This document shows positions 1-22,406 of a stretch of 64,000 nt of DNA, one piece after another; positions within the stretch are counted from its first letter, which is position 1, and every line of letters begins with the position of its first letter. The notes under the pieces are model-generated. The model saw only the letters and a program-made list of their open reading frames with translations, was not told where the DNA came from and did not search any database. Origin of the DNA: an uncultured Gammaproteobacteria bacterium (GTDB taxonomy: Bacteria; Patescibacteriota; Patescibacteriia; UBA9934); the NCBI GenBank assembly GCA_964613815.1, contig CAZTKG010000005.1, positions 22,026 through 86,025 of the forward strand, read 5' to 3'. A program made the position numbers and the translations under genes.

Positions 1-174
1 GATTCGCCGTCGAAGCTTTTGCGTGGGTCTGATTTGATTCCGCTTGGGCTTGAGCCGGGGCCGGTGTTTCGGGAGATTTTGGATGAGGTGAGAGATGCTC
101 AGTTGCTTGGCACAGTTTGTGATAAGGATGGGGCGATTGAGTTTGTGCGGGAGCGGGTTCGGGGGATGTAGATC
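1..174 (+). CDS. Partial CDS (C-terminal fragment, start outside window): CCA-adding enzyme / poly(A) polymerase family C-terminal domain
   Basis: Frame 1 from base 1 reads ...IPLGLEPGPVFREILDEVRDAQLLGTVCDKDGAIEFVRERVRGM* with TAG at 172-174. The motif resembles the C-terminal region of tRNA nucleotidyltransferases. A rho-independent terminator follows. Confidence 0.4.
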
Positions 175-198
175 ACTCTTTGAATAAGGAAAGAAAAA

Positions 199-224
199 AG
201 CCGGGGCCTCTTGGTCCCGGTTTT
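199..224 (+). terminator. Intrinsic terminator hairpin (GCCGGGGCC-TCTT-GGTCCCGG followed by TTTT)
   Basis: GC-rich stem-loop followed by a T-run immediately after the upstream stop codon. Confidence 0.55.
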
Positions 225-232
225 GATGTCTG

Positions 233-568
233 CTAGAGATGTCTTGCGATGATCTCTTTGCGGATGATTTGCTTGAGAAGTTGCTCGGAGAATGCGTGTG
301 TCTCGACCTCCCCTCTCCTTGTCACCTTGATTGTTCGGGCGCGACTTGAAGCATCTGCCTCGATGCATGTGCTACCGCCGTTTCCTGACTCGGTGAATGT
401 GACGTGTATGGATCCGCCTTCTGACTTTGGAGTGGACTCCAGGGTGACCTGAACCCCTACCCTTTCGAGGTCGAATCTGTCGGAGTGCGGGACGAGCTCT
501 TCAAGATATCCGGCGAGTCGTGCCCTGCGCCATCGAACATCTCTCCCGCGGATCTCAATGAGATTCAT
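233..568 (-). CDS. Hypothetical protein (111 aa)
   Basis: ORF overlaps the stop of the upstream membrane-protein gene by 14 bp in operon-like fashion. The alternative overlapping frames look like nonsense. No family recognised. Confidence 0.35.
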   Translation of the reverse strand: MNLIEIRGRDVRWRRARLAGYLEELVPHSDRFDLERVGVQVTLESTPKSEGGSIHVTFTESGNGGSTCIEADASSRARTIKVTRRGEVETHAFSEQLLKQIIRKEIIARHL

Positions 569-1232
569 TCACTTCCCCCTTGTAGTAGATCTGGTATGCG
601 ATGACTCCTAGCGTGTAGGCCACGGTGTAGCCGACCGCCCAGGAGACGATGTAGTAGTCGCTGATCGTAAGGCCGTAGAATGTCCAGGTGATTGCGCTTC
701 CGAGAGAGGTTGCGATGACATCCCTCTCCACGCCCATCGTGCCCTTATTCCACCACATCTTGGCTGGCTGGAAGAACGCTGCGATGACGCTTACCCAAAG
801 TAATGCTGTCGCTGTCTCCTTGGGCGCATATACGTACAGTGGTGAGATCGGGATAATTGCGATCAGCATGAGGTACTGCCACCAAGTGAACCTTCCGAGT
901 CGCTTATGGATGAGTGGCATGAGTCGGAGATAGTATGGTACTCGACAGAAGAACTGGATCAGGAGGGCGAAGCTTCGGATTTCGACCGCGTAGGTGAGGA
1001 GGGATCCGAACATGGCGAGTGAGGTGATAGTCCATTCGACTGATACGTCTTTGGCGCCCTCGCGCTTGACTCGCTTGATCTGCTTGCTGAGCGCCCTTGC
1101 ACCGATGATGGCGAAGATGATGGTTCCGATTGCGCTGATGAGGACGGGGTTTTGCAAGGTCTCTTGGAGGCCTTGCTCACCCCGAATAAGTGCTCGAAGG
1201 ATCTCGAGCTCTTTGTAGAATAGGTGCGGCAC
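555..1232 (-). CDS. Integral membrane protein, Trp/Tyr-rich with multiple TM helices (possibly PnuC-like transporter)
   Basis: 225-aa ORF with several hydrophobic segments and WW/Y-rich motifs. The PnuC assignment is a guess from size and composition only. Confidence 0.45.
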   Translation of the reverse strand: MPHLFYKELEILRALIRGEQGLQETLQNPVLISAIGTIIFAIIGARALSKQIKRVKREGAKDVSVEWTITSLAMFGSLLTYAVEIRSFALLIQFFCRVPYYLRLMPLIHKRLGRFTWWQYLMLIAIIPISPLYVYAPKETATALLWVSVIAAFFQPAKMWWNKGTMGVERDVIATSLGSAITWTFYGLTISDYYIVSWAVGYTVAYTLGVIAYQIYYKGEVNESH

Positions 1233-1355
1233 GTGGCCTCCGATTAAAATGAGCGGATGGGTAGGTTATCAGCATGATCTATGCTTGTCAATCGTTATTC
1301 TTGCACTTGAAAACCTGCCTTGCGGCAGGTTTTCTTGATCCCGAATTATGGAGAC

Positions 1356-1431
1356 TGGTGGAGTCAGCGGGAATCGAACCCGCGACTGCTAGTGTCAAGT
1401 TAGCTGAGGTTACCACTACCTCCATGACCCC
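1356..1431 (-). tRNA. tRNA gene, 76 nt with encoded CCA. Manual fold gives a class-I tRNA with UGA anticodon (Ser-like loop CUUGACA) and a G3-U70 acceptor pair. Identity uncertain.
   Basis: Sense strand GGGGTCATGGAGGTAGTGGTAACCTCAGCTAACTTGACACTAGCAGTCGCGGGTTCGATTCCCGCTGACTCCACCA. Perfect T-arm (GCGGG-TTCGATT-CCCGC), D-arm GAGG/CCTC, acceptor GGGGTCA/TGACTCC with G3-U70. The anticodon stem has one A-C mismatch. Confidence 0.6.
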
Positions 1432-1557
1432 ATTTTTCGGGTCAAAACAAAAAACGCCCTCCATCGTAATGATAAAGGGGTTTATGTGACACTAGCTTGA
1501 GCTCTGAAGCCTCAACTAACACTTGTATGTTAGCATTGATTTTTGCTCATGTCAATT

Positions 1558-2097
1558 TTATTTCTTCACTTCCTTGAGTCGCTTTTTGTACTTTCCGCGG
1601 AGGTAGTTCAACTTTGCTCGGCGGACTCGGTATTGTTTTACGACTTCTACTTTTGAAAGGTTTGGAGATGCTAGGGGGAAGATCTTTTCTACCATCCAGC
1701 CTTTTGAGTCTTTTCGGACGGTCATTGTTCGGCCGATTTTCTTTCCCTTGATTCCGATGATCATTCCTTCGAAGACCTGTACTCGCTCTCGGGGCTGACC
1801 CTTTGGTGAGACGTCTTTGATTCTTTCGTGGACTCGGATGACCATTCCTGGCTTGAGGTCTCGGTTTGGGAGCTCTTCTACGACCTCTTCCTTTACCTCT
1901 TCGGCAGGCTCTTCTGCTGCAGGCTCATCTGGTTTTGGTGTCTCCTGCTGGTCTGATTCGGCCTGCTCTTTTGATGGCTCTGCTGATTTTTCCTCTGGGG
2001 CTGGAGTTGTCTCTTTTGGCTCATCGGCTGGTGCTGATGGCGCTGGAGCGTCAGCTGGCTTTTCTTCCGCCTTGATTTCCTTGTTGTCGTTTTCCAT
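1558..2097 (-). CDS. rplS: 50S ribosomal protein L19 with a ~70-aa acidic Pro/Glu/Ala-rich N-terminal extension
   Basis: C-terminal 110 aa match the L19 fold signature (VFEGMIIGIKGKKIGRTMTVRKDSKGWMVEKIFPLASPNLSKVEVVKQYRVRRAKLNYLRG). The N-terminus is low-complexity (EEKPADAPAPSAPADEPKE...). Confidence 0.85.
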   Translation of the reverse strand: MENDNKEIKAEEKPADAPAPSAPADEPKETTPAPEEKSAEPSKEQAESDQQETPKPDEPAAEEPAEEVKEEVVEELPNRDLKPGMVIRVHERIKDVSPKGQPRERVQVFEGMIIGIKGKKIGRTMTVRKDSKGWMVEKIFPLASPNLSKVEVVKQYRVRRAKLNYLRGKYKKRLKEVKK

Positions 2098-2179
2098 ATT
2101 GTCGGATTCACACGCCAGAGGAAGAGCTTGCCTTCATTCGCGAATTAGTAAGTATGGCAGGATAATAGCGGGATCATGC

Positions 2180-2785
2180 CTATTTGTCAAGCGTTTTGAT
2201 GAACTCAGCTATCTTGATGACGCCCTGCTCGTAGACCTGGTTTTGGTCGATGTCATCTGCATTGATGATGACGTTGAAATTTTGATGGTCGTAGGCGTCG
2301 ATGTTGAAGTAATTTTTGTAGCGTTTGATCTCTGACTGCTTTCGTTGTTCGTTTGCATCGATCACCTCCTGCAGGGATGAGAACGTGTCCCTGAGGTGGT
2401 TACCGTCTTCGTTCCAGATCCGCTCTGCGCCCGCTTCTGGTGAAACGGATAGGAAGACGGTGACTTTTGGGTCTACGACGAAGTGCCACGATGTTCGGCC
2501 TTCGAATACTCCTCTTGTGCGTGTTTTTGACGTCTCTTTTTGGTACTCGTCCACTTCCCTGTCGACGGACTCGTCGGTTTCTAGGAGCTTTTGGAATTCC
2601 AATGTTGTCATTCCGCGTTCTGCAGCTTTTTTTCTGAAGATCTCTCCTGCGTAGAGTCTTGGGATGTCTAGATCTGATGCGAGGCGCTTTGCAAAGGTGG
2701 ACTTCCCTGCTCCGATATCTCCGCTGATGGTGATGCGGAGCGGGTCGGCAGCTTTTAGGATATTGATGGCTTCTTCGGGGGTCAT
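2180..2785 (-). CDS. Cytidylate kinase-like P-loop nucleotide kinase (archaeal-type Cytidylate_kin2 family)
   Basis: P-loop ITISGDIGAGKSTFAKRLA plus the downstream AGEIFRKKA motif typical of family-2 CMP kinases. Confidence 0.65.
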   Translation of the reverse strand: MTPEEAINILKAADPLRITISGDIGAGKSTFAKRLASDLDIPRLYAGEIFRKKAAERGMTTLEFQKLLETDESVDREVDEYQKETSKTRTRGVFEGRTSWHFVVDPKVTVFLSVSPEAGAERIWNEDGNHLRDTFSSLQEVIDANEQRKQSEIKRYKNYFNIDAYDHQNFNVIINADDIDQNQVYEQGVIKIAEFIKTLDK

Positions 2786-2786
2786 A

Positions 2787-3692
2787 TTATGCTGGTAGCG
2801 AATCTAGGATGTCTGATAACTCTGACGGTAGAGGAGCGGTGAATGTTTGGGATGTGCCGTCTGGGAGTGGGAGGGTTAATTCTGCGGCGTGGAGGAAGAG
2901 GCGGTTTAGTGGGAGAGGTTTTTGGCTTGTGTTTTTGTAGAGCATGTCGCCGACGACTTGGTGACCTAGGGCGAACATGTGGACGCGGATTTGGTTTGTG
3001 CGGCCGGTTTTGATGTCGACGTCTAGGAGCGTGTGGTGGTGGAAGCGTTTTTTTACGGTGAAGTTTGTGACTGCTTCTTTGCCGCCTTGCTCTAAGGTTT
3101 TTGCGGCCATGCGGCCGGTTATTTTTGATCTCGCGATTGGAAAGTTCACTTCGTCTTCGTCCCTTTCGATAACGCCATAGACAAGCACTTCGTATTTTTT
3201 GATGACTTCACGGTTTTTGAAGGCGTTTTTTAGATGCACGAACATCTCTTGTGTCTTTGCTACCGCTAGGACGCCGGATGCCTGCTTGTCTAGGCGGTGA
3301 ACTAGACCTGGACGGATTGGATTTTCACCTACTTCTGATATTGCTGGGAGGTATTTTACGAGGGCTTCAGTGAGGGTTGGCTCGTGGGAGGAGTCTGTTG
3401 GGTGGATGAGGAGGCCGGCTTGTTTGTTTAGGATGAGGAGATCTTCTGTTTCGTGGAGAATATTTAGCTCAGGGGTATCCCAGTCAGCCTGTTTAGGGGC
3501 GAAGAAGTCGGGGCTGTATGTGATATCTGCTTCTGCGGTAATTTTGAGTTTTGTTTGTGCTGGAGCGGCGTTCATGAGGACTGCGCCGGATTCGACTGCT
3601 TTTGCCGCTGCTCCCCTGCTAATGCCAAGGCTGACTGCGACGGCCTTGTCGAGTCTGGTTGGTTCGGTGATGTTGAGATCTAGTTTTTTCAT
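2787..3692 (-). CDS. RluA/RluD-family 23S rRNA pseudouridine synthase with N-terminal S4-like domain
   Basis: Catalytic motif HRLDKQASGVLAVAKT. The listed ORF extends to 3770, but the likely start is MKKLDLNI at 3692. The 26 upstream codons lie inside a palindromic repeat element. Confidence 0.8.
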   Translation of the reverse strand: MKKLDLNITEPTRLDKAVAVSLGISRGAAAKAVESGAVLMNAAPAQTKLKITAEADITYSPDFFAPKQADWDTPELNILHETEDLLILNKQAGLLIHPTDSSHEPTLTEALVKYLPAISEVGENPIRPGLVHRLDKQASGVLAVAKTQEMFVHLKNAFKNREVIKKYEVLVYGVIERDEDEVNFPIARSKITGRMAAKTLEQGGKEAVTNFTVKKRFHHHTLLDVDIKTGRTNQIRVHMFALGHQVVGDMLYKNTSQKPLPLNRLFLHAAELTLPLPDGTSQTFTAPLPSELSDILDSLPA

Positions 3693-3727
3693 GTGGTGAG
3701 TATGCCGCGAATACCTTTGTTGATCAA

Positions 3728-3782
3728 GGGATCTCTTCCCATCTCGAGCGAAGTCGAGAGATCTCTCCACTCCCTTCGGTCG
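3728..3782. repeat. Palindromic intergenic element, copy A (degenerate) of a dispersed family
   Basis: CCCATCTCGAG...GAGAGATCTCTCCAC...GGTCGAGATGG shares arms and the central GGAGAGATCTCTCC palindrome with copies at 15427, 39415, 41825 and 62033. Confidence 0.5.
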
Positions 3783-3883
3783 GTCGAGATGGAAATGCGT
3801 TAGGGTTGAGTTTTTCCGATCTTACGCTTACGATGTAAGGGTTGAACGATCCCTTCTTATGTGATTGAATGGGTATTCAAGGC

Positions 3884-3959
3884 GGGCGCGTAGCTCAGCG
3901 GTTAGAGCGCGGAGCTTATATCTCCGTGGTCGATGGTTCGAATCCATCCGCGCCCACCA
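3884..3959 (+). tRNA. tRNA-Ile with apparent UAU anticodon (tRNA-Ile2 type)
   Basis: GGGCGCGTAGCTCAGCGGTTAGAGCGCGGAGCTTATATCTCCGTGGTCGATGGTTCGAATCCATCCGCGCCCACCA. The cloverleaf is canonical: AC stem CGGAG/CTCCG, loop CUUAUAU giving anticodon UAU. The body resembles tRNA-Ile(GAU). Confidence 0.75.
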
Positions 3960-3960
3960 T

Positions 3961-4100
3961 CGTGCTCCTGAATGTGCGTATAGCACTTCTGAATCCGCCC
4001 GAGCCTTGCGGTGCTCGACAACGTACTATTAGTACGCCTTACTCCGCTCCTCGTCTCGGACGAATTCAGAAGCACTATCCACACATTCAGAAGCACGACT
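3961..4100. repeat. MITE-like element: ~38-bp imperfect terminal inverted repeats flanking a ~60-bp core with a 13-bp palindrome GTACTATTAGTAC
   Basis: 3961-3997 (cgtgctcctgaatgtgcgtatagcacttctgaatccg) is the reverse complement, at about 85% identity, of 4060-4100. The two mirrored spurious ORFs (3869.. plus strand, 3902.. minus strand) give near-identical peptides. Confidence 0.55.
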
Positions 4101-4176
4101 GTATTTAATGGCTTACTTTTTCGCTTCATTCCCCATCCTGAGGAAGAGAGATCCTGCTCTCTGACGGAAGGATCTC

Positions 4177-4359
4177 TTGTTCGAGTTTATGATTTACGCA
4201 GTTGTCTTGCTTATGGTATGTGCTGGGTATTTCGGTTATGAACTTGTTCGTAAGCGGACTTTTCATGCTGCTTGGACGTTTATGGCTTGGTTTTCTTGTT
4301 TGCTTGGGAGTTCATTTGTGACATTTGTTGTTTGGGAGACGGTTCGAGGGGTCGTCTAG
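4177..4359 (+). CDS. Small hydrophobic protein (60 aa)
   Basis: Two predicted TM segments; immediately upstream of a second membrane protein gene. Confidence 0.3.
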   Translation: MFEFMIYAVVLLMVCAGYFGYELVRKRTFHAAWTFMAWFSCLLGSSFVTFVVWETVRGVV

Positions 4360-4362
4360 TTT

Positions 4363-4806
4363 ATGCCGGAATTACTTGGGTATACAATCATGATTGCAGT
4401 GCTCTGGTTTTTGATATTTTGGATCCTTGGTGGGGTCTTTTTTGCTATTGTGACGCTGGCTCGAGTGACGAAACTTCGGAAGGCTCGGTTTAGTTGTTTG
4501 TTTACTCTTTTGTCGATGTCGTTTGCGTATGGCGCGGCTTATAGCGGGATGTATTTTGGCGCGAAACGGATTCGGTTTTGTTTGCATGAGGCTTCGGCGT
4601 TTGTGGATGTACTGGCGGCGATTTTTGGGTGCGGTATTTTGGAGATGATTGCGAGTGGCGGACTTTGGTTTATTGGGCTTTTGGCGTGTGGGTTTGTGGT
4701 TTTGATTGTTTCGCGGGCGGAGAATCAGAGTTGGGTGGACAATGATATTCAGGAGCAGGAGCCGGTTTTCGTGGAGGACATGGAGCGGAGGGATGTGGTG
4801 ATTTAG
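4363..4806 (+). CDS. Hypothetical membrane protein (147 aa, 4 TM segments, acidic C-terminal tail)
   Basis: The hydrophobic profile is the only evidence; no recognisable family. Confidence 0.45.
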   Translation: MPELLGYTIMIAVLWFLIFWILGGVFFAIVTLARVTKLRKARFSCLFTLLSMSFAYGAAYSGMYFGAKRIRFCLHEASAFVDVLAAIFGCGILEMIASGGLWFIGLLACGFVVLIVSRAENQSWVDNDIQEQEPVFVEDMERRDVVI

Positions 4807-4825
4807 TTCGAGTCCTCTGCTATTA

Positions 4826-4879
4826 CCCAACCAAAAACACCCAGCCGGAGCTGGGTGTTTTTGGTGGGCGTGAGAGGAC
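4826..4879. repeat. Direct repeat 1 of 2: terminator hairpin plus 18-nt copy of the tRNA-Val 3' end (att-like partial tRNA duplicate)
   Basis: cccaaccaaaaacacccagccggagctgggtgtttttggtgggcgtgagaggac is repeated at 5015-5068, where it forms the real 3' end of tRNA-Val. Confidence 0.55.
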
Positions 4880-5014
4880 GCAAACGTCGCTTCGCTCCCC
4901 AGAGGGGCTTCTGCCCCTATGGCGCCCCTTGTTTGATTTTAGCTGAGGGCTGTCACCCCCGGCATGCAGGGGGATGCTCCCCCTACCACCCCCTGGTTCG
5001 AGATCCTCGTGTAC

Positions 5015-5068
5015 GCCCACCAAAAACACCCAGCCGGAGCTGGGTGTTTTTGGTGGGCGTGAGAGGAC
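5015..5068. repeat. Direct repeat 2 of 2 (overlaps tRNA-Val 3' end and its bidirectional terminator)
   Basis: Same 54-bp module as 4826-4879. GCCCACCAAAAACACCCAGC/GCTGGGTGTTTTTGGTGGGC forms a 20-bp-stem hairpin. Confidence 0.55.
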
Positions 5069-5127
5069 TCGAACCTCTGACTTCCACAATGTCAATGTGA
5101 CGCTCTAACCAACTGAGCTACACGCCC
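5051..5127 (-). tRNA. tRNA-Val (anticodon GAC)
   Basis: Sense GGGCGTGTAGCTCAGTTGGTTAGAGCGTCACATTGACATTGTGGAAGTCAGAGGTTCGAGTCCTCTCACGCCCACCA. AC stem UCACA/UGUGG, loop UUGACAU. Confidence 0.8.
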
Positions 5128-5257
5128 TTGTGTGGGAAGATACATGGGTTTTTTGGGGAATGCAAGAGGCTTAGTAAAAAATAGCCCTTCCATACCTCAT
5201 TGACCTGATCGTAAGACTGTGCCACGGTTAGTCTGTTCTTTTTTGGAGATTTTGATG

Positions 5258-6016
5258 GATATGATTCTTGCTCGTGAGCGGTCACTTGGCTTGCGTTTGG
5301 CGCCCGTGCCCGGTGATCATCCGCGTGCGTGGACTGTACGGGTTGATGGTGAAAAGGTTCAGGCTGAGACTGTTGAGCTTGAGTATTATGACCCTGTGAG
5401 CGGTGCGTACCGCCGCATGCGATACGGACTTGTTCTGTCCGAGGGAAACGTCTACCCGAGTATTGCCTATCGGGAATCGGGTGGGGGTGGCACGGTCAAC
5501 GTTTTGTGGTTCATGCACGAAGATGAACTCTATATTGGCGTCGTCGTTCAGCAGAGGGCGCATATGGGTGATGAGGCTGCGTTGTGTGCGCCTGGTGGGT
5601 ACTTGGACACGGCGAAGTGTGCTTTTGATAGCGCTATCGCTGAGCTGGATGAGGAGGTTCGGGTTGATGCGAGCGTGTTTTGTTCGCCGGTTCAGCTGCC
5701 GGGTAAGCCGGTTTGCCTAGCGCGTTCGCTGACAGACTGCTCTGAGCCTGGAGACGGAGTCCTGTTCTTTGCCTCTCAGGTCAGGCGGACTTCCCTGCTT
5801 GAGCCTGGGAGCGATGGATGGTTTCGGTTTCGTGCTGATGTCCTGCGCGCCGAGCCTGATCCATCTGTGAATACCGAGCGTGTGCTCGAGGTCTTGTTCA
5901 TGCCGGTTGATGAGGTCGTGCTTCGGACGCAAGATGCTTGTGCTCTTGCGGCGATTGCCCGGCTTCGGACGTACCTACGACCTGTTCGCTATCCTCGCTG
6001 GATGTCGCCTCGTTGA
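5258..6016 (+). CDS. Hypothetical protein with degenerate Nudix-like box (GGYLDTAKCAFDSAIAELDEEV), encoded in a higher-GC island
   Basis: The ORF runs 5219-6016, and ATG 5258 (MDMIL) is the likelier start. The Nudix signature is partial, with the catalytic Arg replaced by Ala. GC is clearly above flanking genes. Confidence 0.4.
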   Translation, partial: DMILARERSLGLRLAPVPGDHPRAWTVRVDGEKVQAETVELEYYDPVSGAYRRMRYGLVLSEGNVYPSIAYRESGGGGTVNVLWFMHEDELYIGVVVQQRAHMGDEAALCAPGGYLDTAKCAFDSAIAELDEEVRVDASVFCSPVQLPGKPVCLARSLTDCSEPGDGVLFFASQVRRTSLLEPGSDGWFRFRADVLRAEPDPSVNTERVLEVLFMPVDEVVLRTQDACALAAIARLRTYLRPVRYPRWMSPR

Positions 6017-6133
6017 TATCAAACACCCCAGCATCTGCTGGGCGCTTTTTTCTGCTTATTTTTGGGGGATTTTCTTCTTTGCAGCCTTGTATTCTTCCAT
6101 TGATCTTTTCTTTATATTTTACTCTATTTTACT

Positions 6134-6162
6134 TGACAAATGCTTTTTTTGTGGTATATTTA
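6134..6162 (+). promoter_or_regulatory. Sigma70-like promoter, TTGACA-16bp-TGGTATATT (extended -10), upstream of the 6197 gene
   Basis: Consensus -35 and extended -10 in an AT-rich spacer region. Confidence 0.4.
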
Positions 6163-6196
6163 TTTCTCGCATTTATCATCTTTACTTGGAGAAAAC

Positions 6197-6613
6197 ATGC
6201 GTTTCCTGATCCTTTTCACCCTCTCACTCGCCTGTGCTGAGACGCCCGACAATGGCAGCGTCTTCACTGATGCCGAGTTGAGTGGCGCACAGCCATCTCG
6301 TACACATGGACACGATGACTCAAGCAGTTGGGCGTTACTGTCTACGGAGCAACTGCACGACCCGCTTCGGTGGACTGACCCGATCGTCGCTACTCGCTCA
6401 ACCGTATACATGCATGAGTCCGTTCTTGGGTCCAAGTGCCTGACCCACCCCCTGTTCGAGCACTGTCCAGCTTCTACTGCTTTACCTATTCAGGATTCGC
6501 TCTTGACTCTTGAGCTGATCCTCTTCGGTGAGAAGCTCAAAGCAGACATCGCCGAAAGACTGGCTGAACTCCCTCCTGAAGAGCGGGAGCAGTGGCTCAA
6601 GCATCTGGAGTGA
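6197..6613 (+). CDS. Small secreted hypothetical protein (signal peptide MRFLILFTLSLACAE)
   Basis: RBS ggagaaaac precedes ATG 6197, followed by a signal-peptide-like N-terminus. The listed ORF starts at 6140. Confidence 0.45.
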   Translation: MRFLILFTLSLACAETPDNGSVFTDAELSGAQPSRTHGHDDSSSWALLSTEQLHDPLRWTDPIVATRSTVYMHESVLGSKCLTHPLFEHCPASTALPIQDSLLTLELILFGEKLKADIAERLAELPPEEREQWLKHLE

Positions 6614-6661
6614 GCACCTGAAGAACTATGAAGCCCCGGCAATAATGCTGGGGCGTTTTTT

Positions 6662-9520
6662 TTATTTCTTTCGTGACTTTTCTTCTGCTCGGAGGTATTT
6701 TGCGGTGATACTGTCTTTTACTTTTGTGATCTCTTTTGGTGTTCCTTCTGCGACGACTGTTCCGCCCTTTGCCCCTCCGTCTGGGCCCATGTCGATGATC
6801 CAGTCTGCGGAGCGCATGATGTCGGTGTTGTGCTCGATGACGAGGACGGTGTTTCCTTTGTCGGCTAGCGCGTGGAGGACTTCTAGGAGGCGCTTGATGT
6901 CGTCGAAGTGGAGGCCGGTGGTTGGCTCGTCTAGGATGTAGAGCGTCTTTCCGGTGGCTCGTCTTGAGAGTTCTGTGGAGAGCTTTACGCGCTGTGCCTC
7001 TCCTCCTGAGAGGGTTGTGGCTGGCTGACCTAGTTTGAGGTAGCCTAGGCCGACTTCGTGGAGGACGTTTAGCTTTTCGTAGATGTTTGAGCGGTCGGCG
7101 AAGAATCTTCGGGCTTCGTCGATGGTCATTCGGAGGACGTCGGAGATGTTTTTGCCTCTGTAGTGGATCTCGAGAACGTCTTGGTTGTAGCGGGTTCCGG
7201 CACATTCTGTGCAGTCGGCGTAGACATCTGGCATGAATTGCATTTCGATGCGGATCTGTCCGTCACCTGCGCAATGTTCGCAGCGACCTCCGCCTTTGAC
7301 GTTGAAGGAGAATTTTCCTGCGTCGTAGCCTCGGAGTTTTGCTTCTGTGACGTCGGTGAAGAGGTCTCGGATCGCTGTGAAGACGCCTGTGTAGGTTGCT
7401 GGGTTTGATCTTGGAGTCCGGCCGATTGGTGACTGGTCTACGGTGACGACTTTGTCGATGTTTTTGAGGCCTTTGATTTCTTTGTGCTGACCTGGGTAGG
7501 CTTTTGATCTGTAAAAATGTTTTGAAAGAGCTCGGCCGAGGATCTCGAGGATGAGCGTTGACTTTCCTGACCCTGAAACGCCGGTGACGCAGACGAGTTT
7601 TCCGAGAGGAATGTCTACGGTGACGTTTTGGAGGTTGTGCTGCTCAGCGTTTACGATGGTGAGTTTTTTTCCACTTCCCTTTCGGAGTTTCTTTGGGATT
7701 TTGATTTTCTTTTTGCCGCCTAAATATTGCCCTGTGATGGAGTCGGGGTCTTTGAGGAGCTGTTTTGGCGTTCCTTCTGCGATGACTTGGCCTCCGTAGG
7801 CTCCTGCTCCTGGACCGATGTCGAAGACGTAGTCTGCGGCGAGGACCATTTCTGCGTCGTGCTCTACGACGATGACGGAGTTGCCGAGTTCTTTGAGGTG
7901 CTGGATAGTGCCGATGAGTTTTTCGTTGTCGCGTGGGTGGAGGCCGATGGATGGCTCGTCTAGGACGTAGATGACTCCGCTGAGGCGGGATCCAAGTTGC
8001 GCTGCTAGGCGGACGCGTTGGGATTCTCCTCCTGATAGCGTGACGGCACTTCTGTCTAAGGTGAGGTAGCCTAGGCCGACGTGGATGAGGTGCTCTACGC
8101 GTTCACGAACTTCTTTTGCGACGCGCTCTACGACCATGCGCTCTGCTTCTGAGAGCTCGACCGTACCTTTCCCGTTACCGTTTGTGACCTCTAGGAGATC
8201 CTCGAAAAATTGTGGGACGTCGCCGATTGGGCGACGGACCACTTCTGCGATGGACTGGCCGGCGATGGTGAACATGAGGACATCTGGACGTAGTCGGCCA
8301 CCTTCGCAGGATGGGCAGACCATTGAGCGCATGTAGGTCTCTAGTTCTTTGCGGACGTATTCGCTTGAAGTCTCTCGGTATTTTTGTTGAAGCATGCCGA
8401 CAACGCCTGGGAACGTGATTTCTTTGTCGTCGACGATGTAGATGGTGTCCCCTGTTCCGTTCAGGAGTTGGTTTAGCTTTTCTTTTGTGAAGGTCTCTAC
8501 TGGCTTACTGAGGCTGATCTTCTTTTTCTTTGCGACTGCGGTGAGGACCTTCATGTTGCCGTTTTGGTTTCCGGCGATTCGGCTCCATGGTTTTACTGCG
8601 CCCTGTGCGAGTGTGAGGCGCTTGTTTGGGATGACGAGGTCTGGCTCGAGGACGAGCTTCATTCCGAGCCCTGTGCACTCTGTGCAGGCTCCGTGCGGGG
8701 AGTTGAAGCTGAAGAGTCTTGGCTCTGGAGCTGGGATGGTGATGCCGCTTGGGAGGTGGTAGCCGCGGACGAGGGTGATTTCGTCACCGGTGTCGTCTCG
8801 GTAGAGCATGACGTGGTCGTTGCCGAGGTCTAGCGCTCGATCCATGACGACTTTTACGCGCTCGATTGGGACGTCTGCACCTTCTTCGAAGCGTTCGGCG
8901 AGGATTTCGATAGTGTGTTTTTTGGTCTTTTGTTTCTTCATGGCAATCGCCTCTGTGAGGTCGAGCATGATGCCGTCGTAGCGGACCTCTGTGAAGCCGG
9001 CGTTTTTTGCGGCCATGAGGACGGTTTGGTGCTCCCCTTTTTTGTCTTGGACCATTGGGACGAACAGCATCACTTCGGTTTTACCGACGACTTCCATGAC
9101 TTCTGCGATGAGGTCTTCTGTTGAGCGTTCGCGGATGAGGTCGCCCGTTTCTGGGTTGTGCGGGCGCGCAACTCGCGCAAACAAAACACGGAGATAATCG
9201 TAGATCTCCGTGACCGTACCTACCGTGGACCGCGGGTTGTGTGATGATGATTTTTGATCGATGGCGACTGTTGGTGAGAGGCCGTCGATTGAATCTACGT
9301 CTGGCTTATCCTGCATTTCGAGGAATTGCCGTGCGTAGCTTGAAAGTGACTCCATGTAACGCCTTTGCCCTTCTGCGTAGACGGTGTCGAAAGCTAGGGA
9401 TGACTTTCCTGAACCTGAGAGGCCCGTGATGACGACAAGCTGATCTTTGGGGATGTCGACGTCGATGTTTTTGAGGTTATGCACCCGCGCACCGCGGATG
9501 GCGATTGTCTCTTTTTTCAT
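6662..9520 (-). CDS. uvrA: Excinuclease ABC subunit A
   Basis: 952 aa with tandem ABC ATPase modules, zinc-finger cysteines and the N-terminus MKKETIAIRGARVHNLKNIDVDIPKDQLVVITGLSGSGKSSLAFDTVYAEG. Confidence 0.95.
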   Translation of the reverse strand: MKKETIAIRGARVHNLKNIDVDIPKDQLVVITGLSGSGKSSLAFDTVYAEGQRRYMESLSSYARQFLEMQDKPDVDSIDGLSPTVAIDQKSSSHNPRSTVGTVTEIYDYLRVLFARVARPHNPETGDLIRERSTEDLIAEVMEVVGKTEVMLFVPMVQDKKGEHQTVLMAAKNAGFTEVRYDGIMLDLTEAIAMKKQKTKKHTIEILAERFEEGADVPIERVKVVMDRALDLGNDHVMLYRDDTGDEITLVRGYHLPSGITIPAPEPRLFSFNSPHGACTECTGLGMKLVLEPDLVIPNKRLTLAQGAVKPWSRIAGNQNGNMKVLTAVAKKKKISLSKPVETFTKEKLNQLLNGTGDTIYIVDDKEITFPGVVGMLQQKYRETSSEYVRKELETYMRSMVCPSCEGGRLRPDVLMFTIAGQSIAEVVRRPIGDVPQFFEDLLEVTNGNGKGTVELSEAERMVVERVAKEVRERVEHLIHVGLGYLTLDRSAVTLSGGESQRVRLAAQLGSRLSGVIYVLDEPSIGLHPRDNEKLIGTIQHLKELGNSVIVVEHDAEMVLAADYVFDIGPGAGAYGGQVIAEGTPKQLLKDPDSITGQYLGGKKKIKIPKKLRKGSGKKLTIVNAEQHNLQNVTVDIPLGKLVCVTGVSGSGKSTLILEILGRALSKHFYRSKAYPGQHKEIKGLKNIDKVVTVDQSPIGRTPRSNPATYTGVFTAIRDLFTDVTEAKLRGYDAGKFSFNVKGGGRCEHCAGDGQIRIEMQFMPDVYADCTECAGTRYNQDVLEIHYRGKNISDVLRMTIDEARRFFADRSNIYEKLNVLHEVGLGYLKLGQPATTLSGGEAQRVKLSTELSRRATGKTLYILDEPTTGLHFDDIKRLLEVLHALADKGNTVLVIEHNTDIMRSADWIIDMGPDGGAKGGTVVAEGTPKEITKVKDSITAKYLRAEEKSRKK

Positions 9521-9536
9521 GTTTGGAGGAGTGATA

Positions 9537-9698
9537 AATACCAGTTACGAGACGTGCCTACGACTGTATGCACCTCCACTCTGGCTGCAAAATCGTTCTG
9601 ATTTCGTCAAAATAGCTATGTCTATTCTTCCTCAACCAGCACGTTTTTCGCTCAGAGTGGAACCGCATCCACCTCGCAAGCACGTCTCGTAACTGGTA
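9537..9698. repeat. Inverted-repeat element with perfect 20-bp termini (ATACCAGTTACGAGACGTGC / GCACGTCTCGTAACTGGTAT) and nested inner IR (CCACTCTG/CAGAGTGG), in the uvrA upstream region
   Basis: Direct inspection. The mirrored spurious ORFs 9447..9692 (plus strand) and 9558..9752 (minus strand) reflect the symmetry. Confidence 0.5.
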
Positions 9699-9702
9699 TT
9701 GA

Positions 9703-9742
9703 AAAAATCCATGCGTGGAGCCGAGCATAGCATGGATTTTTC
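9703..9742. terminator. Bidirectional terminator hairpin (AAAAAATCCATGC...GCATGGATTTTT) 3' of the Cys-rich protein gene
   Basis: 12-bp stem flanked by A-run and T-run. Confidence 0.5.
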
Positions 9743-9782
9743 GGGGGTGCAAGGGGTTTGGGTGCTCGTTGGAGGATGAGCT

Positions 9783-11177
9783 CTATTGCAGCTCGCAAGA
9801 TCCGTCGTCTCCAGGTATTTTCGGCTCAACCCATGTGCATACCCCACTGTTGTTTATTCCAAATCTACAGAATTGACTATCTTTCTGACAATAATCTCGT
9901 ACATAAAAGTTTCCGGTGCCGTCATCGAACGTCGTGATTTCTGTCTTGTCCCCTCCCATTCGTATGATTATTTTTTCATATGCCTCGCACGGATTATCTT
10001 TACCTGCTGCTGCACGCAGCTGAGCACAGTCCAAATGCGAGCTACTTTCTGGATATACGAATGTTCCGCACATGTCTGACACCAAACTTACTCCGTATTC
10101 CTTTTTTAACAGCTTACATGAGTAAAAGTCATTTTGTACGCCCGTCGTCTCTGGTTGAGCTGGAACCATTCGCGCGCAGTTTGTATTGTTTGCATCTACC
10201 CCCCCAGATGCCTTTCCGTCGTCGTAAATGTCCTCGCATTTTTTGCATGAGTAATCGCCAGCAGCGGATGAGTCATACATGCACACACCCTCGGCACAGT
10301 CGTCCCATATACATTCGTCGCCCTCTTCGACTGATATATCCATTGATTTATATTCATCATCTAAATAATCAAGTCCTCCTTCTGGGATCTTGCTCTTCTC
10401 TCCGCAGCCACCTCTCAATGGATCGAGCCGGACCCCGATATCGCTCAGTGTCTTGCACGTGGAAGCCCCATCGATGAATGCAACTGTTTTGATTTTTGGC
10501 ACCTGCATGTCCTTGAACTTGACGAGGCTTGGGTCTATGAATGCGGCTATTGCGTACGAACATAAAAGTAGAACAATCCCAATGACTGCGTTTATCATTC
10601 GCTCTTTTGCCCTCGTGACTTGAGAGGTGTTTCCGCGTGCAAGTAGGTATTCGACGCCTCCAATCATGAAAATGAGCACGGCAATAAGAGATGCTGCTCC
10701 AATGAGCCATATGTAAAGTCCTTCGATGTATTCACCCACCGACGAAGCATGGGTGAGGTTCCCTATGGGCACGGATAGGTCTATGGGTATGGCTGGATTT
10801 AGGCAATAGCCCTGCCCCTCTTTACAGTATGCAGACTGACCGGCGTATACCGATGATTTCTCTTCTGTCCCGATCGTTCCTGGCACTGGGACGTTCACCA
10901 CGTCTGCCGTGCATTCTGAAGCCGACCAGCACCTCGGATTTTTTGATGGGTCGTTTCCTTTTTCGAAACAACCGACATAGATCGTGCTTGATTCTCGGCA
11001 TAGGTCTCTACAGTCGCTCTCTGCTAACCCTCCCTTTGATACAGCTCCAGTTTTATCTGTACCGCAATAACACTCGCAGGCTTTTTCTGTTTCTTCTGCG
11101 AAGACGGGTTGCGTTATGGATACTGTCGCTAGGAGCATCAGTGCTGCGATGGAAATGATGCGGAAAATTTTTGCCAT
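9783..11177 (-). CDS. Cysteine-rich (~27 Cys) secreted/envelope protein with central VirB2/TrbC-like double-TM hairpin
   Basis: N-terminal signal peptide, a ~140-aa Cys-rich domain, two TM helices separated by ARGNTSQVTRAKERM (with a GG..Y..A pilin-like motif), then a ~250-aa Cys-rich acidic C-terminal domain. Confidence 0.6.
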   Translation of the reverse strand: MAKIFRIISIAALMLLATVSITQPVFAEETEKACECYCGTDKTGAVSKGGLAESDCRDLCRESSTIYVGCFEKGNDPSKNPRCWSASECTADVVNVPVPGTIGTEEKSSVYAGQSAYCKEGQGYCLNPAIPIDLSVPIGNLTHASSVGEYIEGLYIWLIGAASLIAVLIFMIGGVEYLLARGNTSQVTRAKERMINAVIGIVLLLCSYAIAAFIDPSLVKFKDMQVPKIKTVAFIDGASTCKTLSDIGVRLDPLRGGCGEKSKIPEGGLDYLDDEYKSMDISVEEGDECIWDDCAEGVCMYDSSAAGDYSCKKCEDIYDDGKASGGVDANNTNCARMVPAQPETTGVQNDFYSCKLLKKEYGVSLVSDMCGTFVYPESSSHLDCAQLRAAAGKDNPCEAYEKIIIRMGGDKTEITTFDDGTGNFYVRDYCQKDSQFCRFGINNSGVCTWVEPKIPGDDGSCELQ

Positions 11178-11261
11178 ACGGTAATTGGGTGTATTGTATC
11201 ATCTAGAAGCATTGCATTGACTAAAAGGCTGTGAACTGTTAGTCTTTCTGCAGAAAAATCT

Positions 11262-11474
11262 ATGATTATTACTGTTATACAAATCATTCTTGGCGTGCTC
11301 TTTATTGGAGCTGTTTTGATGCAGTCTGGCGGATCTGGACTGGGCGCTGTTTTTGGAGGAGAAGGGGGGAGCTTTCGGACGAAGCGCGGGATTGAAAAGC
11401 AGCTTCATACGACAACTGTCGCGCTTGCGATTATCTTTTTTGGTGTTAGCGCTGCAAACGCTTTCTTTTTCTAA
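11262..11474 (+). CDS. secG: Preprotein translocase subunit SecG
   Basis: 70 aa, two TM helices, motif LMQSGGSGLGAVFGG...SFRTKRG. Confidence 0.8.
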   Translation: MIITVIQIILGVLFIGAVLMQSGGSGLGAVFGGEGGSFRTKRGIEKQLHTTTVALAIIFFGVSAANAFFF

Positions 11475-11480
11475 TCAACA

Positions 11481-13310
11481 ATGTCTTCGGGCTTTAAAAA
11501 GTCTCGGTTAAAAAGCTCTCGTAAGCGATCTGGCTTGCGTGGGTTTTTTCGATTTAAAAAGGATCGTGGGAAGGATCTTGCCATGAAGCAAGTCTTGAGC
11601 GCGAGGGAGACTCGACTTATCCCTAGCTTTCAACAGCTTATGCACCTTCCTCGCATTTTGAATCCGTTTGAGCGGTTCCTTGCGAGCGTTGCCGTGCTTT
11701 TGATTTTGACGTCTAGTTCCCTGCTTCTCGTCCACCAACTACGAGACTCACGCGCCACCATTCCTGCGATTGGCGGTAGCTATACAGAAGGTCTGATTGG
11801 GTCTCCCCAGCTTATTAATCCCCTGTACGCCATGACGAGTGACGTGGATACGGATTTGGCTCGGCTTATTTATAGTGGGCTCATGCGGTATGACGCAGAA
11901 GATGGACTTGTCCCTGATCTTGCTGATTGGTTTGAAATTTCGGAGGATGGACTGGAATATACGTTTGGCATTCGAGAGAACGCGACCTGGCATGATGGAC
12001 GCCCTGTCATCGCGAGCGACGTGATTTATACGATTACTTCCATTCAAAACTCTCAGTATCGCAGTCCGCTTGGGGTTAGTTTTTCTGGAGTTCAAGTGGA
12101 GCAGATCGATGAGCGTACGGTGAAGCTGATTTTGGAGGAGCCGTTTGGACCGTTTCTCTCACTTTTAACTGTCGGGATCTTGCCGAGTCACTTGTGGAGC
12201 AACGTGAGTCCTTTAAATGCTGTTTTGACGGAGCTTAATATTAAACCTGTCGGTAGTGGACCGTACCGATTTGAGAAGTTGGAAAAAGATACGAATGGGA
12301 CGGTGCGGACCTATACTCTCATGCGAAATCCGGACTTTTATTTTGAAGGACCTTATATAGAAGAGCTTACGTTTAAGTTTTATCATGATAGCTTTTCTGC
12401 TGCTGAAGGGCTTCGGAATAAGAATGTGGAAGGGGTTAGTTATTTGCCGCATGAGCAAATTGTTGAGCTCGCGAATGATAGCGACGTGCGCGTGCTACTC
12501 CCTACTCTTCCACAGTACACCTCTGTGTTCTTTCATCAGGAGAACTCGGATATTTTGGATGATTCAGATGTTCGTGAAGCGCTTGCCATTGCGGTTGATA
12601 AGGAACGCTTGGTTGAGGAGGTTTTTTCTGGATACGCGAGTGCGATTGAGTCGTTTGTGTTACCGGGGATGGATGGGTATACCTCTGATTATCGACCTTA
12701 CGGCTTTGATCGTGAACGCGCGATTGAGATCTTGGAGGACGATGGGTGGGATTTGGAGGATGGTGCTGAGGTTCGCAGCAAGGGGGATGAAACCTTGTCT
12801 ATTGAGCTTGCCGCATTGAACGCACCTGATCTTGCAGCTACCGCCGAGGCCTTGAAGGCTCAGTGGGCGGAGATTGGGGTGCAGGTGGATTTACGATTAG
12901 TTGATAATGCTGAGTTTGAAGATGTGCTCTTGGGAGAGCGGGATTATGAGATGATTTTGTCTGGGGAGTTGTATGGGATTGATGCGGACCCCTACCCTTT
13001 TTGGCATTCCTCGCAGACTTCGGCACCGGGACTTAACCTTGCGAATTTTTCTAGTCGGACAGCGGACGAATATATTGAGACGGCGCGGAGCACGACGAAT
13101 CCTGAAGTTCGGGCGGAGGCGTTCCAGAATTTGCAGGAGTTGATTAGTGATGATGTTGCGGCGCTGTTCTTGTATCAGCCGATGTATGCGTATCCGACTT
13201 CTAGCCGGGTGCAGAATCAATCCATTGAGCATATCGTGACTCCTGCGGATCGGTTTAGTCGGATTTGGGAGTGGTATGTGAAGACGCGGAGCGTGTATCG
13301 TCAGCCTTGA
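11481..13310 (+). CDS. ABC transporter substrate-binding protein, family 5 (peptide/nickel-type), membrane-anchored
   Basis: 609 aa. The basic N-terminus and TM helix are followed by a long domain with SBP_bac_5-like organisation. The start could be the downstream Met at 11583. Confidence 0.65.
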   Translation: MSSGFKKSRLKSSRKRSGLRGFFRFKKDRGKDLAMKQVLSARETRLIPSFQQLMHLPRILNPFERFLASVAVLLILTSSSLLLVHQLRDSRATIPAIGGSYTEGLIGSPQLINPLYAMTSDVDTDLARLIYSGLMRYDAEDGLVPDLADWFEISEDGLEYTFGIRENATWHDGRPVIASDVIYTITSIQNSQYRSPLGVSFSGVQVEQIDERTVKLILEEPFGPFLSLLTVGILPSHLWSNVSPLNAVLTELNIKPVGSGPYRFEKLEKDTNGTVRTYTLMRNPDFYFEGPYIEELTFKFYHDSFSAAEGLRNKNVEGVSYLPHEQIVELANDSDVRVLLPTLPQYTSVFFHQENSDILDDSDVREALAIAVDKERLVEEVFSGYASAIESFVLPGMDGYTSDYRPYGFDRERAIEILEDDGWDLEDGAEVRSKGDETLSIELAALNAPDLAATAEALKAQWAEIGVQVDLRLVDNAEFEDVLLGERDYEMILSGELYGIDADPYPFWHSSQTSAPGLNLANFSSRTADEYIETARSTTNPEVRAEAFQNLQELISDDVAALFLYQPMYAYPTSSRVQNQSIEHIVTPADRFSRIWEWYVKTRSVYRQP

Positions 13311-13448
13311 CAATTTGAAGGCTCGGTGATATTTTGAAGTCTCGATAGATCGCGTTATAATAGATTTAGAGAAATTTAGCCGTTTGGTTTTACTGAGAGC
13401 AGACGATTGCATTTCTCGATATCGATCGAGACCGTGAATCTTTAACAT

Positions 13449-15362: not shown

Positions 15363-15380
15363 GGGGACTTGAGAGCGAAA

Positions 15381-15406
15381 GCCGCCCGGAAGGGCGGTTT
15401 TTGTTT
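15381..15406 (+). terminator. Intrinsic terminator (GCCGCCCGGAAGGGCGG + TTTTTGTTTT) after rnj
   Basis: Stem-loop followed by a T-run. Confidence 0.6.
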
Positions 15407-15426
15407 TGGTTTTCATGTCTTCCCTG

Positions 15427-15472
15427 CCCCATCTCGACCCTGCGGAGAGATCTCTCCACTTCGGTCGAGATG
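15427..15472. repeat. Palindromic intergenic element, copy B (compact form)
   Basis: CCCCATCTCGACCCTGCGGAGAGATCTCTCCACTTCGGTCGAGATG, preceded by the conserved flank CTTCCCTGCCCC. Confidence 0.55.
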
Positions 15473-15569
15473 AGGTTCATTTGCCCTTGCTACCTTGACA
15501 AAATAGTTATTTTGTGATATCTTTCGACTTCGTACTTAGTGATATTTTGATGGTAGTTCGTGAGGCTTT

Positions 15570-16427: not shown

Positions 16428-16535
16428 TCTCTCGATCCCTCCCCGCCCAAGCCCCCGCGCTTGCGTGCGGGGGTTTCTTTTATTGACATTTTTGCTATTT
16501 ATGCATAGGATTTGGAGAGCTGACAACCTGGAGTT

Positions 16536-17141: not shown

Positions 17142-17149
17142 TAGCGCGC

Positions 17150-17176
17150 TGCTCGCGATGTATCGCGGGTTTTTTG
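17150..17176 (+). terminator. Intrinsic terminator (CTCGCGATGTATCGCGGG + TTTTTT)
   Basis: Hairpin plus T-run closing the high-GC island. Confidence 0.5.
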
Positions 17177-17224
17177 ATCGAATCTAAAGCATGGTACGAT
17201 GCGATTGATAAATTTATCTGTATT

Positions 17225-18202: not shown

Positions 18203-18214
18203 GTTAGTCACAGC

Positions 18215-18240
18215 AAAAACAGGCAGGGTTGCCTGTTTTT
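18215..18240 (+). terminator. Intrinsic terminator (AAAAACAGGCA-GGGTT-GCCTGTTTTT) after trpS
   Basis: Perfect hairpin flanked by A-run and T-run. Confidence 0.6.
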
Positions 18241-18270
18241 GTGTTTGATGTGTTGACAAATCTTTGATTT

Positions 18271-18990: not shown

Positions 18991-19054
18991 CGCTGCGCAA
19001 CGTCTACCGTGTATGATTCTGTCCCCGATCGTTTGGTCGGGGGACTTTTTTATT

Positions 19055-20455: not shown

Positions 20456-20479
20456 ACCGCTTGATTATATCACTGAATA

Positions 20480-20503: not shown

Positions 20504-20509
20504 ACTTTG

Positions 20510-22403: not shown

Positions 22404-22406
22404 TGT

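Follow-up and report, generated by a model that had tools for sequence, protein, structure and literature searches.

A tRNA-Ile gene with a genomic UAU anticodon in an uncultured marine Patescibacterium, and a possible lysidine-free reading of AUA in part of the candidate phyla radiation

The DNA analysed here is a stretch of 64,000 nucleotides (positions 22,026 to 86,025 of contig CAZTKG010000005.1, GenBank assembly GCA_964613815.1; hereafter the window), and our subject is one of its tRNA genes, a tRNA-Ile whose anticodon is encoded as UAU. The genetic code poses a classic problem here, as AUA has to be read as isoleucine without AUG being misread. The taught bacterial answer is lysidine, provided by TilS, which the literature describes as an essential protein and a candidate drug target. 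The tRNA gene and its anticodon loop lie as follows:

3884..3959, + strand: tRNA-Ile(UAU) gene of 76 nt with its encoded CCA; body of the tRNA-Ile2 type, T at position 34 (ARAGORN, Rfam)
3915..3921, + strand: anticodon loop CTTATAT, i.e. C32, U33, U34-A35-U36 (3917..3919), A37 and U38 (direct reading, ARAGORN)

The initial annotation read a UAU anticodon in the loop CUUAUAU of a canonical cloverleaf, and both points are borne out. ARAGORN returns tRNA-Ile(tat) at 3884..3959 (+) and takes the anticodon from tRNA position 34 (window 3917..3919), while the Rfam tRNA model RF00005 matches the gene over its full length with 73.2 bits (gathering threshold 29, E = 4e-14), the top Rfam tRNA score among the tRNAs of the window. 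The gene parses as GGGCGCG TA GCTC AGCGGTTA GAGC G CGGAG CTTATAT CTCCG TGGTC GATGG TTCGAAT CCATC CGCGCCC A CCA, with stems of 7/4/5/5 bp, a 7-nt anticodon loop, U33, A37, the discriminator A73 and an encoded CCA. A scan for sigma-70 promoters and terminators around the gene gave no signal above background.

Identical copies of the 76-mer are present in two independent assemblies (ENA ERZ23498905 and JGI 3300008625), which makes three assemblies with the window, so that T34 is neither an assembly artefact nor a single-nucleotide polymorphism. A tRNA-Ile2(CAU) that had suffered a recent C-to-T mutation, or been misassembled, would be only one transition away from what is seen, since TAT and CAT differ by no more than that; this explanation is nevertheless effectively refuted, and we give it practically no weight, as the gene is identical in the three assemblies, has a perfect cloverleaf scoring 73 bits, and shares T34 with at least 120 species whose genes covary in a compensatory manner elsewhere in the molecule (see below). 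The gene at 3884..3959 is a real tRNA gene, apparently for isoleucine, with a genomic UAU anticodon. A lysidine substrate has C34 (genomic CAT), whereas window position 3917 is T, likewise in the two other assemblies; with T rather than C at position 34, lysidine is neither needed nor possible.

We then compared the body of the tRNA with those of Escherichia coli. The closest E. coli tRNAs are annotated tRNA-Ile genes, the first being the Stx-prophage ileZ with anticodon CAT; ileX of strain K-12 is annotated as tRNA-Ile(CAU). Identity is 76% to ileX/ileZ, 71% to ileV(GAU) and 66% to both the elongator and the initiator Met tRNAs, and the D-loop of 8 nt and the total length of 76 nt are as in ileX. 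The Ile-like body of the initial annotation is therefore retained in a modest form: the margin is small, so that the ileX-like body is supportive but not decisive, and we do not rest the isotype on identity, since comparing whole tRNAs with E. coli references gives only a weak separation of Ile2 from Ile1 and Val. Compared with the E. coli isoleucine identity elements (reportedly defined by Nureki et al. in 1994), A73, C4-G69 and U12-A23 are shared, while G29-C41 and U38 deviate. The antisense of the tRNA (3884..3957, − strand) is also matched by RF04354 ('Plastid-ycf2 5'UTR') with 45 bits, under the threshold of that model. The model seems to be largely the antisense of a trnI(CAU)-like tRNA; presumably, the match is explained by plastid trnI-CAU lying antisense to the ycf2 leader, and it would then also speak for an Ile2-like body.

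A degenerate ileX-like body with a TAT anticodon was used as a search pattern against a species set of 185,579 representative genomes. At least 120 of these genomes contain the pattern; most belong to the candidate phyla radiation (CPR) and some to Chloroflexota. The 120 matches listed (hereafter TAT loci) are labelled as explicit CPR (65, from ∼20 candidate phyla), 'uncultured Gammaproteobacteria' TPA metagenome-assembled genomes (28; hereafter MAGs), Chloroflexota (11), unlabelled (12) and other (4), and 119 of them receive a tRNA-Ile(tat) call from ARAGORN. The earlier description of genomic UAU tRNA-Ile as rare thus remains apt for cultured bacteria and for the wording of the literature, but not for CPR (at least 120 species, and 13 of the 80 ftsH loci described below).

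The 28 MAGs named 'uncultured Gammaproteobacteria bacterium' (TPA_asm; e.g. L082, L095-L097 and L102-L105) show a GC content with a median of 38.5%, and in 10 the synteny is of the CPR type, with ftsH, an RluA-family gene and rplS beside tRNA-Ile(TAT). Their label therefore looks unreliable, either wrong or a placeholder.

Conservation within the family was analysed in 76 tRNA-Ile(TAT) genes, taken from the first 80 of the at least 120 loci plus the window. Nearly all are distinct in sequence (73 of 76); A73 is invariant, and 74 of the 76 keep all seven acceptor pairs. Position 38 is A in 65 genes and U, as in the window gene, in six. Among 50 aligned sequences, 98.9% of cells pair and compensatory changes occur at 14 of 21 pairs, with a covariation score of 0.70, compared with 0.16 in shuffled alignments and no more than 0.12 when the register is slid. 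Distinct sequences, intact stems and covariation together indicate that the family is under selection; on this evidence, it appears to be functional, and it is not rare in CPR.

Proteins identical to those of the window are found on marine metagenome contigs of up to 155 kb, and the closest homologues of its isoleucyl-tRNA synthetase (IleRS; 58–67% identity) come under the names Candidatus Uhrbacteria or 'Patescibacteria group'. The names of these homologues place the host as a Patescibacterium, and by its proteins it is best regarded as an uncultured marine member of CPR near Uhrbacteria. The RNA genes of the window comprise RNase P RNA, a 23S rRNA with a group I intron, a 5S rRNA and scattered tRNAs; a gene resembling a type IV secretion system (T4SS) pilin is also encoded, and sugar metabolism is reduced. 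Counted over 24 confident genes, ileS among them, the 632 Ile codons include 24 ATA (3.8%; 2.4 per 1000 codons), while the other A-ending codons show no avoidance. Three of the ATA codons are in ileS, and the aligned residues in 119 homologues are L, I, V, F or Y and never Met, although this concerns only three positions. Judged by these codons, AUA reads as a rare but real sense codon that means isoleucine. Being rare yet used, it needs a decoder, which fits the profile of a minor tRNA of the tRNA-Ile2 type.

The synthetase that would have to charge such a tRNA is also encoded in the window:

34393..37287, − strand: ileS, a type-2 IleRS with a eukaryote/archaeal-like C-terminal anticodon-recognition domain (NCBIfam, Pfam, PDB ranking)

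This open reading frame (ORF) matches NCBIfam TIGR00392 (ileS) with 854 bits and contains the Pfam domains tRNA-synt_1, Anticodon_1 and DUF5915 (the last at residues 861-961). It scores 690-764 bits against cytoplasmic IleRS/IleRS2 structures, compared with 281-310 bits against IleRS1 (1FFY, 8C9E), and also scores as MupA/MupB-like; DUF5915 is present in all 120 nearest homologues, which are named Uhrbacteria or Patescibacteria. By its domain content, we assign the window IleRS to type 2 (IleRS2), with an ARD3/DUF5915 C-terminal domain in place of the Zn-binding domain. IleRS2 is a kind of synthetase known to accept U34, the other being IleRS1 with Arg or Lys at the wobble-stacking site, and the enzyme encoded at 34393..37287 presumably charges tRNA-Ile(UAU).

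The initial annotation held that a UAU tRNA implies loss of tilS. The gene has not been lost across CPR as a whole: according to a published supplement, the cultivated CPR member Southlakia epibionticum has an annotated TilS, essential by transposon sequencing (Tn-seq) and encoded directly upstream of ftsH; its genome also has three 'tRNA-Met' (CAT) genes and a single tRNA-Ile, but no gene with TAT (PMC10633639). The gene ftsH is likewise a neighbour of the UAU tRNA. It is present at 22 of the 120 TAT loci listed and shares the strand of the tRNA at 21 of these; the tRNA starts at most ∼300 nt past the ftsH stop at 17 TAT loci among the matches listed, three Chloroflexota included. The genes upstream of ftsH at TAT loci among these matches are rpsA (encoding S1), pyrH-like, trpS or, in Chloroflexota, dut–hpt; TilS never occupies that place among the matches listed.

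A search for tilS at TAT loci is informative only given this ftsH adjacency and positive controls, as the chance expectation beforehand is to find none. A second sample consisted of 80 metagenome ftsH loci that were chosen by alignment to CPR FtsH, without use of the tRNA. With E. coli TilS as the query, 30 TilS ORFs were recovered just upstream of ftsH on the same strand, which shows that the detection is sensitive, and one iteration with a hidden Markov model (HMM) raised the number to 32. Overall, tilS lies upstream of ftsH in 32 of the 80 loci and tRNA-Ile(TAT) lies downstream in 13, and no locus has both. Loci with at least 2.5 kb upstream and at least 1 kb downstream (n = 41) were regarded as informative, and they divide as follows:

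TilS present: TAT present in 0, TAT absent in 19
TilS absent: TAT present in 11, TAT absent in 11

Fisher's test gives p = 2.5e-4 for these 41 loci, a statistic that ignores phylogenetic non-independence. An HMM built from 30 diverse TilS sequences had no match in the window, its flanks and the 120 TAT loci listed, ∼950 kb in total.

In a neighbour-joining (NJ) tree of FtsH, the CPR TAT loci all fall into one large clade that has no TilS-positive member. Two TilS-positive CPR-like loci (L212 and L226) branch just outside this clade, and the Chloroflexota TAT loci form a separate cluster. Proteins related to the L212 TilS bear the names Kazan, 'Patescibacteria group' and 'Parcubacteria group', and their loci have the order rpsA–(cmk)–tilS–ftsH. 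TilS-positive CPR loci also contain an ileX-like tRNA(CAT): that of L286 has an anticodon arm nearly equal to that of E. coli ileX and lies beside tRNA-Val(gac), and that of L287 matches the TAT search pattern except for C34. The comparison of rpsA–tilS–ftsH plus an ileX-like CAT tRNA with rpsA–ftsH–tRNA-Ile(UAU) is most simply read as a change of C34 to T together with the loss of tilS.

Loss of tilS in the UAU lineage thus appears well supported, with both genes at none of the 41 informative loci (p = 2.5e-4). For the host itself, neither tilS nor a CAT tRNA, of Ile type or otherwise, was found in the ∼83 kb of its genome that the window and its flanks represent; with ∼83 kb inspected, the loss that had been read from the anticodon is unproven for this genome. 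The UAU tRNA could then be a supplementary reader of AUA in a genome that keeps tilS and tRNA-Ile2(CAU) elsewhere, as in Lactobacillus plantarum and L. casei. More than 90% of the host genome is unseen, and TilS is kept in some CPR (including Southlakia, Kazan and some 'Patescibacteria/Parcubacteria group' MAGs). We nevertheless regard such redundancy as unlikely: none of the informative ftsH loci has both systems, the CPR TAT clade is free of TilS-positive loci, and the TilS HMM is blank over the ∼950 kb of TAT-bearing sequence. The CAT tRNAs beside TAT genes were considered as tRNA-Ile2(CAU) paralogues and rejected, as they are of the initiator or elongator types.

We therefore prefer a reading in which lysidine has been replaced, and think it probable that the host genome is without tilS and that tRNA-Ile(UAU) is its only decoder of AUA; we infer the absence of tilS and tRNA-Ile2(CAU) from the rest of the genome. 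In the mechanism that we propose, (i) tRNA-Ile(UAU) would be the minor isoleucine tRNA (tRNA-Ile2) and most likely the sole reader of the rare AUA codon; (ii) it would, by precedent, be charged by the type-2 IleRS; (iii) U34 would pair with the third-position A of AUA; and (iv) AUG would presumably be discriminated against through an intrinsically weak binding of AUG by a U34 tRNA-Ile and/or an adaptation of the ribosome, as has been shown for M. mobile and a B. subtilis suppressor (see below). The gene may have arisen as a C34-to-T derivative of a lysidine-dependent tRNA-Ile2(CAU), early in a large CPR subclade in which tilS would have disappeared from its ancestral site, flanked by rpsA and ftsH. 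In this subclade, the typical place of the UAU tRNA gene is directly after ftsH.

On a wider scale, we see a slightly better than even chance that a large CPR subclade (many candidate phyla, the host included) and, separately, some Chloroflexota have abandoned lysidine, with tilS deleted from rpsA–tilS–ftsH (or tilS–hpt–ftsH) and AUA read by tRNA-Ile(UAU). The same lineages might then possess an unfamiliar guard against AUG misreading, either ribosomal or through modification of U34/U36, conceivably by an RluA-family synthase. If all this holds, these lineages would be by far the largest bacterial group that reads AUA without lysidine, contradicting the view that such systems are rare; with UAU tRNA and IleRS2 in use across a large part of CPR, an exception would become a major evolutionary alternative, and many natural replicates would be available of how U34 avoids AUG. 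The orders rpsA–ftsH–tRNA-Ile(UAU) and rpsA–tilS–ftsH would also be a simple genomic marker for CPR systematics, possibly including the relationship between CPR and Chloroflexota, and annotation and completeness estimates that use tilS as a universal marker would be affected. Taken alone, the window gene is a solid instance that is unsurprising given its lineage.

Several points weigh against the reading that we prefer for the host. First, the p-value for mutual exclusivity ignores kinship, and the NJ tree of FtsH is crude. Second, the ∼83 kb seen belong to a genome that is likely near 1 Mb, so that tilS or tRNA-Ile2(CAU) could lie elsewhere, and in the UAU lineages tilS could have moved instead of being lost. 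Third, the window is without ftsH, so that the argument from ftsH loci reaches the host only via shared synteny (i.e. the RluA-family gene, rplS and tRNA-Val). Fourth, both systems do coexist in some Firmicutes, namely the L. plantarum and L. casei mentioned above. Fifth, IleRS2 occurs in about half of all bacteria and also in the TilS-positive CPR member Southlakia, which makes the IleRS type permissive rather than diagnostic. Finally, a 2026 preprint reports that anticodon reading by the IleRS2 of P. megaterium is more stringent than that by IleRS1, so that acceptance of U34 is not to be assumed.

Genomic UAU tRNA-Ile genes are known from Mycoplasma mobile, Bifidobacterium, Neorickettsia, some lactobacilli, Nanoarchaeota and Korarchaeota, in agreement with the shorter list of the initial annotation (M. 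mobile, bifidobacteria, lactobacilli and Nanoarchaeota), and its proposal of a non-lysidine decoding of AUA holds in that the window contains a tRNA-Ile2-type gene with a genomic UAU. In M. mobile, U34 is unmodified and AUG is excluded by the ribosome (Taniguchi et al. 2013, PMC3575796). The host resembles M. mobile in having a bacterial tRNA-Ile with a genomic TAT, an Ile2-type body, A37 and a reduced genome, and in a tRNA that would decode a codon otherwise served by lysidine, but the two differ in three respects (PMC3575796 for the M. mobile data): (i) the absence of tilS has been shown in M. mobile and is inferred for the lineage of the host; (ii) the M. mobile IleRS is of type 1, with Arg865 replacing the wobble-stacking Trp, while that of the host is of type 2; and (iii) M. 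mobile is one species in Tenericutes, while the UAU trait described here extends over a large CPR clade.

The closest mechanistic analogues are Bifidobacterium and Neorickettsia, which have tRNA-Ile(UAU), a eukaryote-type IleRS and no tilS (PMC3575796). They share with the host the combination of a genomic UAU tRNA-Ile and an IleRS2-type synthetase, but belong to other phyla, and in CPR the tRNA is linked to ftsH, an RluA-family gene and rplS, with the vacated site of tilS visible. Genomic UAU and a type-2 IleRS are also combined in the eukaryotic cytoplasmic tRNA-Ile and in the tRNAs of Nanoarchaeum and Korarchaeum; the eukaryotic tRNA requires intron-dependent pseudouridines (Ψ34/Ψ36), while the window gene has no intron. 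With the CAU–TilS system of E. coli ileX and of Southlakia, the window gene has in common the 8-nt D-loop, A73, the AUA codon and the role of a minor tRNA, and the ancestral neighbourhood rpsA/hpt–ftsH is common to CAU–TilS systems and UAU lineages; it differs in having T34 for C34, and tilS is gone from the conserved locus in the UAU lineages.

A laboratory case is also relevant. In a Bacillus subtilis ΔtilS strain, the suppressor tRNA-Ile1(G34U) has an unmodified U34 and binds AUA far better than AUG, with a misincorporation of ∼1 in 1000 (Köhrer et al. 2014, PMC3919564). This is experimental proof that a tRNA-Ile with unmodified U34 can replace lysidine, and the same mechanism may operate here. 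The suppressor is, however, a laboratory mutant that has the body of the major tRNA-Ile1(GAU) and belongs to an organism with IleRS1, while the window gene is natural, ancient and Ile2-derived. The literature gives tilS in ∼98% of genomes and still terms UAU tRNAs 'rare cases', and we found no paper in the searchable literature that links lysidine with Patescibacteria or candidate phyla, or the AUA codon with CPR. The window gene thus appears to belong to a known kind, whereas the pattern at the level of a CPR clade may be unreported.

The immediate neighbours of the tRNA gene are as follows:

1558..2097, − strand: rplS, ribosomal protein L19 (NCBIfam rplS_bact)
2787..3770, − strand: RluA-family (RluD-like, S4-domain) pseudouridine synthase, TIGR00005 with 205 bits, divergent from the tRNA
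3960..4098, + strand: long imperfect hairpin with 44-nt arms, 84% complementary, and a 51-nt spacer, starting 1 nt after the tRNA CCA
5051..5127, − strand: tRNA-Val(GAC), which in CPR usually lies directly beside tRNA-Ile(UAU) (ARAGORN, Rfam)

Near tRNA-Ile(TAT) in the 120 loci listed, tRNA-Val(gac) was found 31 times, the RluA-family gene 33 times and rplS 26 times. The common CPR order, on one strand, is tRNA-Ile(UAU), (tRNA-Val), the RluA-family gene and rplS. In the window and in the nearest loci (L107 and L109, which share uvrA), tRNA-Ile(UAU) occupies the equivalent place in reversed orientation, i.e. it is locally inverted within a downstream neighbourhood that has been kept (RluA-family gene, rplS and tRNA-Val). 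The L19 protein of the window has a low-complexity N-terminal extension of ∼75 residues (E/K/P/A-rich) before its conserved domain.

The linkage with ftsH is shared between phyla: ftsH lies directly before tRNA-Ile(UAU) at 19 CPR loci among L079-L198 (rpsA–ftsH–tRNA) and at three loci of Chloroflexota (L111, L149 and L162; dut–hpt–ftsH–tRNA). Either convergence or a derived trait common to both could account for this arrangement; proposals of a kinship between CPR and Chloroflexota exist.

The reversed orientation and the long inverted repeat that abuts the 3' end of the tRNA would suit a gene brought in by a phage or mobile element, serving the codon needs of that element and standing outside the core decoding set. 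A tRNA-Ile(TAT) of the same body pattern is in fact carried by 70 viral contigs (IMG/VR, L009-L078), so that phage-borne UAU tRNA-Ile is common; an ileX query of a phage collection added nothing. We consider such an origin very unlikely, because the neighbours in the window are housekeeping genes (rplS, cmk-like, RluD-like, tRNA-Val and uvrA) whose order is conserved across many CPR lineages, there is no integrase or phage gene near tRNA-Ile(UAU) in the window, and the family follows an FtsH clade, which argues for vertical inheritance.

The hairpin has a predicted fold of -62.2 kcal/mol (z = -8.5) and is possibly a terminator, an element for processing or a scar left behind by the local inversion. 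It matches no Rfam family, occurs only once in the window and lacks a counterpart in the syntenic loci L107, L109 and L144. In L144 (a Magasanikbacteria MAG, ∼4870..5010), the last ∼40 nt of tRNA-Ile(TAT) are repeated ∼95 nt downstream in an att-like manner.

The RluA-family neighbour might bear on how AUG is avoided. It adjoins tRNA-Ile(TAT) in 33 of the 120 loci listed and in 6 of the 13 TAT loci of the metagenome sample, compared with 0 of 20 TilS loci. U34, and perhaps U36, could accordingly be modified, e.g. to pseudouridine as in the eukaryotic tRNA-Ile(ΨAΨ), possibly by this synthase, so that reading would be limited to AUA; ΨAΨ is naturally accepted by eukaryote-type IleRS, and an engineered U34 tRNA-Ile becomes modified in Haloarcula. 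We rate this as rather improbable. The adjacency is confounded by shared ancestry, the synthase resembles a housekeeping RluD orthologue (it has an S4 domain, and RluD is its best equivalog) linked to rplS, and U34 is unmodified in both bacterial cases studied (M. mobile and B. subtilis). Eukaryotic Ψ34/Ψ36 are, moreover, products of Pus1, which is not an RluA-family enzyme. We thus keep to a reading in which weak AUG binding and/or the ribosome would provide the discrimination.

Other features of the window concern its rRNA genes and its composition. The 23S rRNA gene (54965..58508, − strand) is ∼3.5 kb long, contains a group I intron at 55479..55782 (Rfam, 72 bits) and is followed by the 5S rRNA gene. 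No 16S rRNA gene is adjacent to it within the window, so that the rRNA genes appear to be unlinked, as has often been reported for CPR. Strand asymmetry is extreme and of uniform sign over the whole window (1..64000): the + strand is G- and T-rich, with a GC skew of about +0.13 and an AT skew of about -0.2. Synonymous choice flips with gene orientation, i.e. ATT is much preferred to ATC on the + strand (e.g. 48:7), while the ATT:ATC ratio is reversed in genes on the − strand (2:58 in UvrA and 5:51 in IleRS).

In the left flank of the host contig (L289, 16189..17949), a valyl-tRNA synthetase (ValRS) is called at 586 aa; TyrRS and ArgRS lie close by and form a small aminoacyl-tRNA synthetase cluster with it. 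At this length, the ValRS call may represent a gene that is split or truncated. Three tandem tRNA-like genes are present at 50318..50648 (+ strand). Their acceptor, D and T arms are good (Rfam 49-57 bits), but their anticodon arms are not canonical. The first (50318-50388) has an anticodon arm of only 14 nt, the second (50477-50548) has a 6-nt loop TGCACC, and the third (50554-50648) has a loop insertion of ∼23 nt and is guessed by ARAGORN to be Leu-caa despite having no long variable arm. The trio is also present in an independent assembly (L006), and a comparable 'tRNA-???' call occurs in the CPR locus L212.

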